A stretch of 64,000 nucleotides of DNA from a virus (IMGVR_UViG_3300027710_000022:11076-75075), one strand, 5' to 3'; counted from the stretch's first letter, positions 14,217-42,266 are shown. Notes: generated by a model not told the origin, from the sequence alone. A program made the numbers and translations.

Positions 14217-14450
14217 ATTGTTATAAATAGTGTAATACAAAATAAAAATTTAAACTTTTTTAATATATCCTATCTATTATCCCAAATTAATTTTTTAATG
14301 ACAAATAGTCATGTGAAATTTAACCATTTTGGGTAACAAGTTCTTATTTATTTGTGTATGGAAAAAAATAATATAATCGATTCCAAACTTTCTTATATGG
14401 TTATTTTTCCGTATATTTTACAAAACAATAAATTCTTAAACAAAAAACGA

Positions 14451-17400
14451 ATGAAAAAAACAATTCTAAGTTTACTACTTTTATTAGTGGTAGGGTTTTC
14501 TGGGTTTGCTCAAGTAACAACCTCGACGATTTCCGGTATCGTAAAAACCGAAAAGGGTGAGACATTACCAGGTGCCACCGTTCAAGTAGTACACGTACCA
14601 ACAGGAACAAAGTACGGAGCAAGTACAAATTTATCTGGTAAATATGTGGTTCCTGCAGTGAGAGTAGGTGGACCGTACAAAGTAATAGTATCATTTGTTG
14701 GTTTTAATCAAAACGAACAATCAGATGTTAATACTTCTCTTGGTGTTACAACAAACGTAGATGTTGTGTTAGTTGAGTCGAGCACATCATTAAAAGAAGT
14801 TGTGGTAACAGGTGGAGGTAGAAATAGTACTTTCTCAAAAGAAAGAACTGGAGCATCACAACAATTCAGTAGACGAGAATTACAGGCAATTCCAATTACA
14901 GGTGCAAGAACTATCGATGGTATCACAAAATACAACCCATTCGGTAATGGTTCTTCATTTGGAGCTCAAGATTCTCGTTTGAATAATTTTACAATCGACG
15001 GTTCTCAATTTAACAACAACTTCGGTTTAGGTTCATCAGCACAAGCAGGTGGTAGAACAGGGGCTTCCGCCATATCGTTAGACGCGATTGAGCAATTGCA
15101 AGTGAACGTAGCACCATTCGATATTCGTCAAAGTGGATTTGTTGGTGCAGGTATTAATGCTGTAACAAGAAGTGGTTCAAACGAAATCGAAGGTTCGGTA
15201 TACCAAACACAAAGAGATAATAGTTCTCGTTATGTTGGTGACAATGCAAGAGGTACAACGGTAACCGCATCTAAATTTGATGAGAAGGTACAAGGGTTCC
15301 GATTAGGAGCACCAATCATTAAGAACAAATTGTTCATCTTTGGTAACTATGAATCAATTGATAGAACCGAACCAGGTACAACTTGGATTTCAACAGGTTC
15401 TCCTTTAACAGGTTCACAAGTTAGTAGACCAACTTTCCAACAATTGACTGACCTTTCTAAATTTATGAAAGACAAGTTTAATTATGAAACGGGTCCGTTC
15501 GAAGGATATTCTAACACTAACACTTCCAATAAATTCTTGGTACGTTTAGATTGGAATATTAATGATAAAAATAAATTAACAACTCGTTATGTGTTCCATA
15601 ATTCAGAAGCACAAATTGGAATTTCAAATTCACAATCTGCGGGTTTCGGTAATAGAACTCAAAACATCAATGCAATGTCTTTCCAAAATAGTGGATATAC
15701 TATTCAGGATAACACACGTTCATTGGTAATGGAATTAAACTCAAAGTTCTCAAACACTTTACATAACAACTTAATTGTTTCATATGATAAACAAATTGAG
15801 AATAGAGGTTACATGTCTCAAATGTTTCCAACGATTGATATTAAAGAGGGTTCAACAACATTAACATCTGTTGGTTTTGACCCTTTCACTCCTGGTAACA
15901 AATTAGATTATAATACATTTAACATTACAAACAACTTAACAAAGTACATGGATAAACATACTTTAGTGGGTGGTTTTAACTTTCAAATGTATCAATCAAA
16001 TAATTTATTCTTTCCAGCTTCTAATGGTGTTTACATCTTTAATAGTTTGGCAGATTTCTACACCGCGGCTAATCAATCATTGGCAAATGGTGGTAAACCA
16101 TCAGCATTCGCACCAGCTCGTTTCCAATTCCGTTATTCGGCATTACCCGGAGCGATCGAACCAATGCAAACTCTTAAATCTAATAGATTAGATTTGTATT
16201 TACAAGATGAATATAATGCAACTAAAGATTTAGTTTTAACATTTGGTGTTAGAGCGAACATTATTGGATTTGATAATACTGCTTTGGAGAACCCAACAAT
16301 TACCGCAATGACATTTGCAAATGGTGAGAAGTTTAATACGGGTACAATGCCAAAAACACAAGTTCTATTAGAACCTCGTTTAGGATTCAACTGGGATGTT
16401 AAGGGTGAGAAGAAAACACAAGTACGTGGCGGAACAGGTGTATTCACAGGTCGTCCTCCATATGTGTTCTTATCTAACCAAATTGGTAACAATGGTGTGT
16501 TAACAGGATTTATCGATGTTAGTGGAGCCGCAGCTGCACAATACGGATTCACTGCGGACCCTAACAAATACTTTATCCCATCAACCCCAACTTTACCATC
16601 AACATTTGACTTGGCGTTAACTGACCCTAATTATAAATTTCCACAAGTATGGAAAACAAATTTAGCGGTTGACCAAAAATTACCATTCCTTGGTTTAGTC
16701 GGTAGTGTTGAATATTTGTATAATAAAACAATCAATGCTGTTCATTATTATGAGGCTAACTTACAAAATCCGGTGGGTACATTGGGTGGTGTTGATAATA
16801 GACCTCGTTTTGGTGGTACTGATGCAACAGTTAGAGTAAATAATAGTGTTTCAAGAGCGGCTGTCCTTACAACTAAAGACGGTGCATATCACGAATCATT
16901 AACATTGAAATTAGAAAAACCAGTTCAAAAAGGATTTTGGGGTTCAATTGCTTGGACAACAGCAAACTCAAAAGACTATATGAGTGCGGGTTCAATCGCA
17001 AGTGGTTCTTGGCAATCAGCATTATCAGTTAATGGTAATAACGATTTAGGATTATCATTCGCAGATGCGTTTGTTAAAAATAGATTTGTTGGTTTATTAG
17101 GTTACAGAATTGATTATGGTAAAGGTTTAGGTGGGGCAACTACATTTACTTTAGGTTATGTGGGACAACAATCTAATCCATTCTCATACATCGCAGCAGG
17201 TGACTTAAACGGTGATAGAGTAAACAACAACGATTTAATCTTCGTACCTAACAAGGGTTCAGATATCAAATTCGCAAGTTTAACCGCAGGTGGTAAAACA
17301 TTTACTGAAGCAGAACAACAAGCCGCATTCGATGCATTTATTGGACAAGATGAATACTTGTCAACTCGTAGAGGTCAATATGCTGAAAGAAATGGTGGAT

Positions 17401-17735
17401 TATTACCATATCTACATAGACTTGATTTCTCAGTTGCACAAGATGTGTTTGTTAAAATTGGAGGTAAAAGAAATTCGTTCCAAATTAGAATGGATATTCT
17501 TAACTTTACAAATATGTTGAATAATGATTGGGGAGTTTCTCAAAGAGCAACAGCACCTCAATTGTTAAACTTTGTAAGTAGAGATGCTGTTACAAATGTA
17601 CCAACATATAGATTAGCAACTCAAAGATTGACAGATGGTTCTACTATTTTAGCTAGAGATTCTTATCAATACAATTCATCAGTATTTGATGTATGGAGTG
17701 CTCAATTAGGTATCCGATATATCTTCGGTAGATAA
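14451..17735 (+). CDS. TonB-dependent outer-membrane receptor, Oar-like (carboxypeptidase-regulatory-like N-domain)
   Basis: Signal peptide MKKTILSLLLLLVVGFSGFAQ; ISGIVKTEKGETLPGATV; plug motifs NNFTIDG, LDAIEQLQV, AGINAVTRSG; C-terminal QLGIRYIF. Confidence 0.92.
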   Translation: MKKTILSLLLLLVVGFSGFAQVTTSTISGIVKTEKGETLPGATVQVVHVPTGTKYGASTNLSGKYVVPAVRVGGPYKVIVSFVGFNQNEQSDVNTSLGVTTNVDVVLVESSTSLKEVVVTGGGRNSTFSKERTGASQQFSRRELQAIPITGARTIDGITKYNPFGNGSSFGAQDSRLNNFTIDGSQFNNNFGLGSSAQAGGRTGASAISLDAIEQLQVNVAPFDIRQSGFVGAGINAVTRSGSNEIEGSVYQTQRDNSSRYVGDNARGTTVTASKFDEKVQGFRLGAPIIKNKLFIFGNYESIDRTEPGTTWISTGSPLTGSQVSRPTFQQLTDLSKFMKDKFNYETGPFEGYSNTNTSNKFLVRLDWNINDKNKLTTRYVFHNSEAQIGISNSQSAGFGNRTQNINAMSFQNSGYTIQDNTRSLVMELNSKFSNTLHNNLIVSYDKQIENRGYMSQMFPTIDIKEGSTTLTSVGFDPFTPGNKLDYNTFNITNNLTKYMDKHTLVGGFNFQMYQSNNLFFPASNGVYIFNSLADFYTAANQSLANGGKPSAFAPARFQFRYSALPGAIEPMQTLKSNRLDLYLQDEYNATKDLVLTFGVRANIIGFDNTALENPTITAMTFANGEKFNTGTMPKTQVLLEPRLGFNWDVKGEKKTQVRGGTGVFTGRPPYVFLSNQIGNNGVLTGFIDVSGAAAAQYGFTADPNKYFIPSTPTLPSTFDLALTDPNYKFPQVWKTNLAVDQKLPFLGLVGSVEYLYNKTINAVHYYEANLQNPVGTLGGVDNRPRFGGTDATVRVNNSVSRAAVLTTKDGAYHESLTLKLEKPVQKGFWGSIAWTTANSKDYMSAGSIASGSWQSALSVNGNNDLGLSFADAFVKNRFVGLLGYRIDYGKGLGGATTFTLGYVGQQSNPFSYIAAGDLNGDRVNNNDLIFVPNKGSDIKFASLTAGGKTFTEAEQQAAFDAFIGQDEYLSTRRGQYAERNGGLLPYLHRLDFSVAQDVFVKIGGKRNSFQIRMDILNFTNMLNNDWGVSQRATAPQLLNFVSRDAVTNVPTYRLATQRLTDGSTILARDSYQYNSSVFDVWSAQLGIRYIFGR

Positions 17736-34320: not shown

Positions 34321-34730
34321 TGGTGGAGGTGACGGGACTCGAACCCGTGTCTTTCCTGTTCAACAATAAATGACTACACGTTTATTCAATTAGTTCACAA
34401 CTGACAAATATTTGGTTCCTATTTTGACATCGTTACCAACAACTGTGTCGAGTTCACTTTTGTTACGGTAGTCCTCTGAACGAGACCGTTTGTTTCTTTT
34501 TGGGTAGAAACCACACCTTAAGTACTTCTGTTCCTAGGTTATATGTACGTCGACCCGATTGTAGTTTCGCCTTAGGCTACTGCTACGTTAGAAGTTGCAA
34601 GAATACCTGCTACTTCCATGTTGTTGTAAACGTTGCCGTCTAAAATTTTCCACCGTAGATTTAAGTCATAGATGAAGTCTGACTACGTGCCACTTACCCC
34701 TGATACCTGAAATCAATGCCAGGCACCCCC
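34321..34730 (-). ncRNA. ssrA: tmRNA
   Basis: 5' GGGGGTG pairs with 3' CACCTCC-A-CCA including the G3.U70 Ala determinant; T-arm CGGG-TTCGAGT-CCCG; internal tag frame 34637-34572 (GNVYNNMEVAGILATSNVAVA*) after TTAGAC. Confidence 0.92.
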
Positions 34731-36649: not shown

Positions 36650-37513
36650 GGGCCGAACGGTTTTAAAACGTTCCAATTCCACCACTTTGTTTTACTAAAC
36701 AAAGAAAAAAAACACTGAGAATACATGTTTTAACAATTGACTTGGGGACATTATTTGATTCTTCCCTTTTCCACTACCTTTTGAGTAGTACCAATCAGCG
36801 GCGGTCAATTAGATTAACCAATCCTTAAGTCGTTATATACTCTTTTAATACTCATTACTCATCAAAGATGCCTCCCTGATTCAACCTTGCGGGTTTAGAG
36901 AACTTTTTTAAAAATCACATTGGGCTTGAGACCCTTTGTGGCCGTGAACCCCTCACGACTATGTAGCCACCTGTCTACAACGACTGACGAACACTTTTTC
37001 TTGTATGATTTTAAGTTGTTAAACCAAAATTAACAAAATTTAGTTTCCGAATTTGGGAAAGTAGTGGTTCGTCGACCAGCCAAGCCACCTTTTGAGCGAC
37101 TCGATACTAAACTACTCTCTGTAACATCCCTGCTACCATATTTTTGGACCCCTTCAAAACTAAACTCTTGGTAGAGTTTAATAAAGGATGATAACGACAC
37201 CACTCGTACTTCACCATACCTTTCGGTTTTAAGATTCCCATCATATTGAATCACGCAATTGTAAAGTCGGATAACGATACTTCTCACAATAACTCTATGG
37301 ATTATTCTTATTGGTGTTCCCACCTCAACCAAACAACTCGGATTGCTTGGTCGTCAAACCACTTTCCCTAAAGTGTTACCCTCAGTACTTAAGGTTTAAC
37401 GATACTCCACTTGCCTACTCGAGATCCATTACTGAATCCGCAACTCACCCCAACCAAGGGTTTGTCACTTTATCCCACTTTCATGGTTTATTTTAATCGA
37501 CCATAGGCGGCCA
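36650..37513 (-). ncRNA. Large (~860 nt) structured ncRNA, GOLLD-like candidate
   Basis: No credible ORF; own promoter and terminator; ends pair (GGCCG/CGGCC); many hairpins including GNRA loops and two identical UCAAAAG loops; next to a tRNA array. The family assignment is inference. Confidence 0.75.
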
Positions 37514-38735: not shown

Positions 38736-38886
38736 CTGTAGTGGGTGGGTTCGAACCACCAAGTGGAGATTCAACCGATAACATGACGCTTGCAAGCTGG
38801 TGGTCTACCCCCTAATATTATCAATCTGTTTCTTTGTCCACACCCCCGAGACAGGAGGGTACGTTTGCCAATTTCGTCACACTACA
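38736..38886 (-). tRNA. tRNA-Asp(GTC)-like RNA with an 82-nt extended variable region
   Basis: Acceptor TGTAGTG/CACTACA, G73, D-arm ACG/CGT, anticodon arm CCCTC-CTGTCTC-GGGGG, T-arm GGTGG-TTCGAAC-CCACC. Confidence 0.65.
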
Positions 38887-39079
38887 ATATAACACCCTTT
38901 TATCAGCCGAAGCCTCACATAACCTTAGTGTGGAACCACAGGTAGGTGTCATGAATGATTACCACTGAGAATGTAGATTTTCACTAACTCGATTTAGCGG
39001 TCTCTATGGTAATTTTTTTGATGGATGAAAAACATCTATTTTTCTTGCGGATTTCCATCGGAATCCCATAATTTAAAAG

Positions 39080-42179: not shown

Positions 42180-42266
42180 TTGCGGGTGCAGGATTCGAAC
42201 CTGACGTGTCGTTTTACCGACGTGTGCTTATGAGACACCTGAGTTTGACCACTACTCTAACCCGCA
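42180..42266 (-). tRNA. tRNA-Met(CAT) with an atypical long variable arm
   Basis: TGCGGGT/ACCCGCA; loop CT CAT AA; 18-nt variable region with a GTCG/CGAC stem. Confidence 0.75.

Follow-up and report, generated by a model that had tools for sequence, protein, structure and literature searches.

A tRNA-like RNA with a large branched variable arm, carried by phages and by Bacteroidota chromosomes

What kind of RNA is encoded by a phage gene that has a complete cloverleaf, the GUC anticodon of tRNA-Asp and 82 extra nucleotides between its anticodon and T arms? The question is raised by positions 38736-38886 of a viral stretch of 64,000 nt (IMGVR_UViG_3300027710_000022:11076-75075), the whole of which is referred to here as the window. 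A first-pass annotation, made from the sequence alone, had described at this locus a tRNA-Asp-like RNA with a structured insertion in the variable arm, and had proposed either an aminoacylatable mimic or decoy of tRNA or a functional RNA built on a tRNA scaffold. The coordinates, the cloverleaf, the Asp identity elements, the U at position 37 and the 82-nt insert were all as it claimed, and the gene lies on the minus strand. We found that the element belongs to a large family, new to Rfam and present in phages and Bacteroidota, and that it is neither a chance fold nor a pseudogene nor a gene with an intron. The best reading is that the phage has here its own copy of a non-decoding RNA, derived from a tRNA, which is also encoded in Bacteroidota chromosomes. 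We hold with high confidence that it is a real RNA of this family, retains its arm and does not decode.

The window copy has a complete 7/5 cloverleaf with U1-A72, G2-C71, U8 and G18G19 when read on the minus strand, and the minimum-free-energy fold (ViennaRNA) recovers this cloverleaf together with a single long branched arm. Its fold energy is no better than that of shuffled sequences (z = -0.6), so that one sequence proves nothing and the proof has to come from relatives. An exact-pattern scan of IMG/VR (anticodon arm, gap and T arm) matched 38 phage contigs, and a scan anchored on the conserved hairpin of the arm alone matched at least 120. In total, 105 distinct full-length members were gathered from lake-phage contigs and Bacteroidota chromosomes. 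Covariation was assessed on 59 non-redundant sequences (<88% identity) and a structure made up of the cloverleaf plus six helices in the arm. Cells of this structure were paired in 95.6% of cases, against 76.6% for shuffled alignments and 44-54% when the partners were slid, compensatory double changes were found in 34 of the 45 pairs with every helix supported, and none of the 500 shuffles reached any of the five measures. All cells of the acceptor stem (helix 1) were paired, with double changes in five of its seven pairs (pairs 4-7 covary); two of the three pairs of the D stem (helix 2), all five of the anticodon stem (helix 3) and 15 of the 18 in P1, P1b and P2 of the arm (helices 4-6) showed compensatory changes as well.

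A covariance model (R1) built from the 59-sequence family alignment gave the window copy 150.8 bits and every ordinary tRNA in the window 45 bits or less. Family-wide, no member falls under 77 bits and no ordinary tRNA rises above 56, and the nearest outsiders are class II tRNA-Leu genes (45-56 bits). The first-pass annotation had expected standard tRNA finders to mis-call the RNA; instead, ARAGORN and the Rfam tRNA model miss it altogether. ARAGORN called 12 tRNAs and a transfer-messenger RNA (tmRNA) in the window, the 38736-38886 RNA not among them, and the Rfam tRNA model (RF00005) gave no match there, either at its gathering score or at E <= 10. The Rfam matches of the window are those same tRNAs and tmRNA plus a GOLLD RNA. 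No relevant Rfam 15 match was found for the window stretch at E <= 10 or for six bacterial loci at E <= 0.1. The 50,697 GenBank phage records searched by blastn contain no match to the element, and full-text literature searches turned up no description of the family, nor has it an Rfam entry.

The relatives redraw in part the folding first proposed for the insert (Table 1). Covariation upholds 4 bp of the GTGGA/TCCAC helix, the GATAATAT/ATGTTATC pairing is correct as one portion of the longer 11-bp helix P2, and the GCTTGCAAGC hairpin is borne out as real. Conversely, the GATT/AATC helix has no covariation support and a 3-bp helix (P1b) covaries instead, and a fourth hairpin, P3, had been overlooked. 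P3 is nearly invariant in sequence in the phage copies and in most bacterial ones, its closing G-C pair being replaced by U-A in a divergent subgroup. In the phage relatives (L001-L136), the stem of P4 covaries (helices 8-9), and the hairpin forms a perfect palindrome, always with UGCA or GGCC as its 4-nt loop; judging from their sequences, such self-complementary loops would allow kissing or duplex dimers. Short bacterial variants (109-123 nt) keep P1, P1b and the internal loop and have lost the distal hairpins, P3 included. Since the insert is kept among homologs, decay into a pseudogene does not account for it. About half of the phage copies have a second insertion, in the D loop, formed by a 6-8-bp hairpin with a conserved 7-nt loop (e.g., L040:2739-2907, minus, and L059:7909-8079, plus), which is absent from the window copy and mostly absent from the bacterial ones. 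Several motifs considered for the arm were discarded. Pairing of a GAC in P3 with the GUC loop fails, as the C of this GAC lies within the P3 stem and the short variants keep GUC without P3; competition of the CCACC of P3 with the T stem fails, as P3 is constant while T stems vary, with no covariation between them. K-turn, loop E and tetraloop-receptor readings of the internal loop did not fit by eye.

The arm also persists in contigs from RNA libraries. Four freshwater metatranscriptome assemblies contain contigs, 97-98% identical to the window, that cross the arm and both of its borders, spanning 38740-38866 and 38746-39000 without a joint. In contigs from relatives, the anticodon arm likewise continues directly into their own arms, and no spliced joint was found among the assembled contigs of the four libraries. 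These data are contigs with sampled-word shares of 0.05-0.14, and they show the unspliced form, not its level, ends or strand. The borders of the insert are plain covarying helix with no bulge-helix-bulge, and no Rfam intron match indicated a group I or II core, for which 82 nt are too few. Retention is further argued by the class II D arm, which accommodates a long arm, and by the conservation of the arm loops from phage to bacterium. Removal of the insert to yield an ordinary tRNA-Asp is thus contradicted, and the proposal of a functional RNA on a tRNA scaffold is upheld by an insert that is conserved, covarying and retained. Several of the contigs from relatives stop in the D loop (window 38871-38875) and run into Illumina adapter; these stops could reflect cleavage there or a halt of cDNA synthesis, although contigs cannot establish ends.

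Conservation along the family outlines a composite molecule. U1-A72 is invariant in all the 59 non-redundant members and in all 64 aligned bacterial copies. G2-C71 (59/59) and G73 are invariant too, and U3-A70 is invariant or nearly so, as are the core positions U8, A14, A15, G18 and G19. The T loop has invariant G53, U54, U55, C56, G57 and A58. The anticodon loop has U35, C36, pyrimidine 37 (U or C) and C38 throughout the family, and G34 is present in every phage copy and in 58 of the 64 bacterial ones. Position 33 is U in most members, including the window copy, and A, C or G in about one-sixth. Pair 10-25 is A-U (25), U-A (17) or G-C (11), position 10 of the window copy being A. All members have the 7/5 acceptor/T branch and the marks of class II tRNAs, i.e., three base pairs in the D stem, an A15/U48-type core and a long helical variable arm emerging beyond position 45. 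In this they resemble tRNA-Leu (class II, RF00005), with which they share the 7/5 branch, the 3-bp D stem, A14, A15, G18, G19, U48, a canonical T loop and the point at which the arm leaves. Unlike tRNA-Leu, they have an arm of 82 nt, branched and with conserved loops, against ca. 13-21 nt, together with G73 (not A73), U1-A72 and an Asp-type anticodon loop with pyrimidine 37. All members have a GUC-type loop and G73 in place of the anticodon and discriminator of a tRNA for Leu, Ser or Tyr (A73 for Leu and Tyr). The elements by which aspartyl-tRNA synthetase (AspRS) recognizes its tRNA are known from E. coli (reviewed in PMC9976931). The Asp identity set (G73, G34, U35, C36, C38 and G2-C71) is present in the window copy and, as the first-pass annotation had noted for that copy, is kept across nearly the whole family. 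The similarity to canonical tRNA-Asp(GUC) extends to these elements; the differences are U1-A72 instead of G1-C72, U37 instead of A37, the lack of G10, a class II D arm, the giant arm and U-A instead of G-C at 51-63. In short, the body resembles tRNA-Leu and the anticodon loop tRNA-Asp, within a full L-shape frame. This Leu-like body and the invariant U1-A72 had escaped the first-pass annotation, as had the chromosomal copies and the regulator described below.

Table 1. Position of the tRNA-like RNA gene and of its structural parts in the window
Feature	Window positions	Strand	Description
Whole tRNA-like RNA gene	38736..38886	minus	151 nt; U1 = 38886, discriminator G73 = 38736
Acceptor stem 5' strand, positions 1-7	38880..38886	minus	pairs with 38737-38743
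Acceptor stem 3' strand, positions 66-72	38737..38743	minus	helix 1
D arm	38861..38877	minus	3-bp stem + A13.A22; loop with A14, A15, G18, G19; class II, tRNA-Leu-like
Anticodon-like arm	38843..38859	minus	5-bp stem; loop 38848-38854 = C32 U33 G34 U35 C36 U37 C38
GUC anticodon	38850-38852	minus	within loop C-U-G-U-C-U-C
Variable-arm domain	38761..38842	minus	82 nt, branched, from anticodon stem to T stem
P1 (variable arm)	38838-38841 with 38763-38766	minus	4 bp
P1b (variable arm)	38831-38833 with 38767-38769	minus	3 bp, AGA/UCU
Conserved 5 x 4 internal loop (variable arm)	38826-38830 with 38770-38773	minus	
P2 (variable arm)	38815-38825 with 38774-38784	minus	11 bp
P3 hairpin	38799..38811	minus	13 nt; 4 bp, tetraloop UAGA, bulged A
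P4 hairpin	38788..38797	minus	10-nt perfect palindrome
T arm	38744..38760	minus	5-bp stem, canonical 7-nt T loop (helix 10)

This composition does not seem to be that of a decoding tRNA. Elongator tRNAs combine U33 with a purine at 37; the constant pyrimidine 37 and the free position 33 of the family are foreign to them. The T stem differs as well. The T stem of a tRNA tunes its affinity for EF-Tu when the amino acid, such as Asp, is a weakly binding one. Phage tRNA-Asp genes have G1-C72 and, in 13 out of 13, G51-C63, whereas nearly all members of the family have U-A or A-U at 51-63, from which it is predicted that the Asp-charged RNA should bind EF-Tu poorly. From these sequence features, the RNA is not the decoding tRNA-Asp and very probably works off the ribosome.

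On the bacterial side, scanning one genome per prokaryotic species gave noisy results, most of the listed matches being chance hits in high-GC genomes. Among the matches listed, the true members were all in Bacteroidota (Chitinophaga, Pedobacter, Saprospiraceae, Cyclobacteriaceae, Cytophagaceae and others). Chitinophaga pinensis and Pedobacter are examples of culturable carriers. In a sample spread evenly over the phylum, the RNA was present in 14 of 151 genomes; in one order, it was found in 69 of 101, many of the misses being small, incomplete bins, with tandem arrays of up to six copies. Two loci have tandem copies without P3 and with a different position 34, namely two short ones with UUC (a Glu anticodon) in L274 (1070-1179 and 1292-1400, plus) and four with AUC in L305. 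In many bacterial copies, a TAnnTTTG motif (Bacteroidota-type promoter) ends 15-43 nt upstream of U1; they are therefore genes in their own right, whose short leader RNase P would need to cut off. Almost all of them have C74 after G73, as do the host tRNA-Asn genes. Of the phage copies (n = 106), 35 follow a tRNA-Ser gene at a distance of no more than 12 nt and 41 have no tRNA within 300 nt upstream. The window copy is found 192 nt downstream of a tRNA-Met (spacer 38887-39078, minus), at the end of the array of 12 tRNAs, in a neighborhood with no promoter-like excess and no terminator; CCA is not encoded, and C74 directly follows G73. With a G+C content of 32%, a GOLLD RNA, a tmRNA and the gene for a SusC-like outer-membrane barrel, the window itself is consistent with a large phage that infects Bacteroidota.

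The chromosomal copies have one constant neighbor. Immediately upstream, on the opposite strand, about 15 of the 20 bacterial loci have a gene of ca. 155 codons coding for a regulator of the Lrp/AsnC family, whose best solved relative is E. coli AsnC (PDB 2cg4, E = 3e-35). On the NCBIfam AsnC model, it scores 157-180 bits, under the curated cut-off of 227 and 85-110 bits above the other Lrp-family models. In the phylum sample, an orthologue (E <= 1e-47) was present in 14 of 14 RNA-positive genomes and in 2 of 137 others, and it is adjacent and divergent to the RNA gene in 9 of the 14. The remaining neighbors vary (sufB, a trmB-like gene, those for lysyl-tRNA synthetase and ArfB). One genome (G148) has a gene for the ArfB ribosome-rescue hydrolase (L314:4128-4553, plus) directly upstream of one of its two RNA copies and the AsnC-like gene elsewhere. 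A Flavo-1 RNA (L260:2607-2674, minus; 35.1 bits, below the gathering score of 42) is located ca. 0.8 kb from two Pedobacter copies. In E. coli, asnC is back-to-back with the asparagine synthetase gene asnA, which it activates at low asparagine. Here that place is taken by the RNA gene. We looked for asnA beside distant homologues of the regulator in GatB-negative genomes, and none was found.

Putting these features together, the sequences point to an off-ribosome RNA that is handled by the tRNA machinery and tied to asparagine or aspartate metabolism, which we consider nearly, but not quite, an even chance. RNase P would excise the RNA from the transcript of the phage tRNA array, and its 3' end would be trimmed and CCA added as for host tRNAs. 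Because G34, U35, C36, C38, G73 and G2-C71 are conserved, the host AspRS would be expected to charge it with aspartate, and pyrimidine 37, the variable position 33, the weak T stem and the giant arm suggest that the charged RNA would be kept off EF-Tu and the ribosome. A more speculative step is amidation of the Asp to Asn on the RNA by the GatCAB amidotransferase. U1-A72 lets bacterial GatCAB amidate Asp on tRNA-Asn, whereas G1-C72 blocks it (Bailly et al. 2006, PMC1635274; Nakamura et al. 2010, PMC2811023). With this determinant in place, Asp on the family RNA could be amidated too. Synthesis of Asn on tRNA has been proposed for organisms that carry GatCAB together with asparaginyl- and glutaminyl-tRNA synthetases (AsnRS and GlnRS), Bacteroidetes included (Alperstein et al. 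2014, PMC4206432), and all five RNA-positive genomes checked have GatB, AsnRS and GlnRS side by side in their gene content. The family shares U1-A72 and G73 with the GatCAB substrates tRNA-Asn and tRNA-Gln (phage tRNA-Gln has U1-A72 in 26 of 26), and differs from them in its Asp anticodon, which a discriminating AspRS could charge, in being apparently unfit for decoding and in its Leu-like D loop. Disabled decoding would stop Asn from entering proteins at Asp codons. The outcome would be an AsnC-controlled, RNA-scaffolded supply of asparagine, and the phage, AT-rich and Asn-rich, would carry a copy so as to sustain that supply during infection. As far as sequences can suggest, this GatCAB route is a tentative proposal. 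In its most complete form, with a dedicated ribosome-excluded Asn scaffold charged by AspRS, amidated by GatCAB, switched on by the AsnC-type regulator at low asparagine and sustained by the phage copies, and with the UUC copies of L274 as a Glu/Gln counterpart, we regard it as rather unlikely to hold in every part.

Several observations weigh against this reading. GatB was found in 14 of 14 RNA-positive genomes and also in 112 of 137 others (126 of 151 overall), many of them RNA-negative, so that its presence does not discriminate. AsnB-type synthetases above the cut-off occur in four of the five RNA-positive genomes, as do host tRNA-Asn genes with U1-A72, and the RNA is therefore not needed as the sole route to Asn. 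The idea that carriers lack asparagine synthetase is accordingly not supported for AsnB; AsnA was found neither in the carriers nor in 10 non-carriers and is uninformative. The draft genome G076, which has no AsnB above the cut-off, no AsnA and a tRNA-Asn with G1-C72, suits the asparagine scaffold well, yet this is one case only. Neither of two complete jumbo phages carrying the RNA encodes a class IIb synthetase or GatB (phage genes for AspRS, AsnRS and GatB were looked for in both, and none was found), so that any such chemistry must be the host's. On the RNA itself, six bacterial copies lack G34 (A34 in four from one genome, U34 in two from another), position 10, G as an element for E. coli AspRS, is A, U or G in the family, and the D loop is tRNA-Leu-like with extra bases after G19, while the D-loop rule of GatCAB is no supernumerary U20A. 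The asparagine model assigns no role to the P3 hairpin or the conserved internal loop, which may bind something else. Finally, the window-like contigs of the RNA libraries are shallow (depth, 3-6) and could come from DNA carry-over or from a precursor.

The same features could also belong to a regulatory or sensor RNA, in which the tRNA frame would serve processing and stability, perhaps with a charged/uncharged read-out, and the conserved modules of the arm (internal loop and P3) would offer binding sites for a protein, ligand or further RNA. The RNA might titrate AspRS or some other factor that binds tRNA, or might be a decoy that draws off an enzyme aimed at tRNAs in infected cells; for the decoy role that the first-pass annotation had suggested, the support goes no further than shape. 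Conservation in the arm is highest in single-stranded or loop sequences rather than in helices, as is typical of binding sites, and the self-complementary P4 loop of the phages (UGCA or GGCC) makes dimerization possible. Pairing with an amino-acid-responsive regulator suits a starvation-linked role, and the tandem multicopy arrays suggest that a high dose is needed. However, no Rfam aptamer or protein-binding motif matched the window (E <= 10), no partner gene is conserved in the phages, and the invariant U35, C36, C38, G73 and U1-A72 go unexplained unless an enzyme reads the molecule as a tRNA. We consider this explanation unlikely, if worth keeping in sight.

A lesser prospect is that the RNA donates its amino acid to a non-ribosomal transferase that modifies the cell wall, lipids or peptides, with the arm as the handle of the transferase. 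The features that suggest charging without decoding are the same as those behind the asparagine-linked RNA, and the multicopy arrays would fit too. There is a precedent in Staphylococcus, in which non-proteinogenic tRNA-Gly species feed Fem transferases. Like the present family, they are kept beside a decoding isoacceptor, have T-stem changes expected to weaken EF-Tu binding and work off the ribosome; unlike it, they have a normal size and normal anticodon loops, and the family has no visible transferase partner. No gene of the Fem, MprF or cyclodipeptide-synthase type was found beside any copy, the AsnC-like regulator being the only conserved neighbor, and a role in the host envelope is hard to square with carriage by at least 120 phages, which together leave this donor improbable.

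Equally poor are the prospects of a functional tRNA-Asp isoacceptor that, in spite of its arm, decodes GAY codons on the ribosome. The GUC anticodon, the full cloverleaf, the place in phage tRNA arrays and the U33 of most copies would suit it, and there is no other tRNA-Asp among the 12 tRNAs of the window. Nevertheless, a canonical tRNA-Asp(GTC) is found in the same stretch in 20 phage loci, among them close relatives that have the gene order and array of the window (L005, L012 and L016). In addition to the pyrimidine 37 of all members, the departures from U33 and the missing G51-C63 pair, the A34 and U34 variants are at odds with such a tRNA, and no known class II arm reaches more than ca. 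one-quarter of the length of this one.

That the gene is an interrupted tRNA-Asp whose 82-nt insert is an intron removed after transcription is hardly credible: the sequence without the insert would resemble a 69-nt tRNA and archaea offer precedents for odd intron sites, the site being non-canonical here, but the RNA libraries have contigs across both borders and no spliced joint, the D arm is of the class II type suited to a long arm, the loops of the insert are conserved from phages to bacteria, bacteria have no tRNA splicing endonuclease, there is no group I or II core, and removal would leave U37 in any case.

Other tRNA-derived molecules offer partial parallels for the off-ribosome, tRNA-handled RNA that we favor. 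Allo-tRNAs and other irregular tRNAs of class II type, described from metagenomes and phages, have a long variable arm and an anticodon that does not match their class (Mukai et al. 2017, PMC5389517). The family shares both traits with them, but allo-tRNA arms are of ordinary length, on an 8/4 or 9/3 branch, against a 7/5 branch and a branched arm of 80 nt here. Another parallel is offered by tmRNA and the bacterial Y RNA YrlA, in which tRNA-like modules and tRNA maturation enzymes serve a non-decoding job (PMC4201824). A tRNA module has been repurposed in those cases too, and both occur in phages; the difference is that they replace the anticodon arm by other domains, whereas the family keeps the whole cloverleaf and adds to the variable arm, with no Rfam match.

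The surroundings of the element in the window have features of their own. A full-length GOLLD RNA (36712-37119, minus; 309.6 bits for a gathering score of 150) is located 1.6 kb downstream of it, and the tmRNA (34321-34730, minus; 82.5 bits), with the tag peptide GNVYNNMEVAGILATSNVAVA, is ca. 4 kb away; a tmRNA near tRNA arrays is also found in the relatives L004, L021 and L038. One tRNA-Met(CAT) of the array (42180-42266, minus) is unusual for a CAU tRNA in being long-armed: it has 87 nt, is class II-like, with U1-A72 and a 14-nt variable arm, its anticodon stem starts with a C.C mismatch at the base, and its Rfam tRNA score is the lowest of the array (42 bits). An open reading frame of 1127 aa (14352-17735, plus) codes for a CarboxypepD_reg domain and an outer-membrane beta-barrel similar to SusC/TonB-dependent receptors, an unusual cargo for a phage that hints at a Bacteroidota host.

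If these interpretations are correct, a widespread tRNA-derived RNA, present in about two-thirds of the genomes of one order and in at least 120 lake-phage contigs, goes unseen by current annotation pipelines. It would represent a new way of repurposing the tRNA fold, in which the cloverleaf and its handles for enzymes are kept, decoding is disabled and a domain of 80 nt is grafted onto the variable arm. The retention of GatCAB alongside AsnRS and GlnRS is a published puzzle (PMC4206432), and the pairing with an AsnC-type regulator provides a concrete, testable tie to amino-acid metabolism. For the phages, it would mean that the tRNA arrays of large phages hold more than decoding tRNAs.

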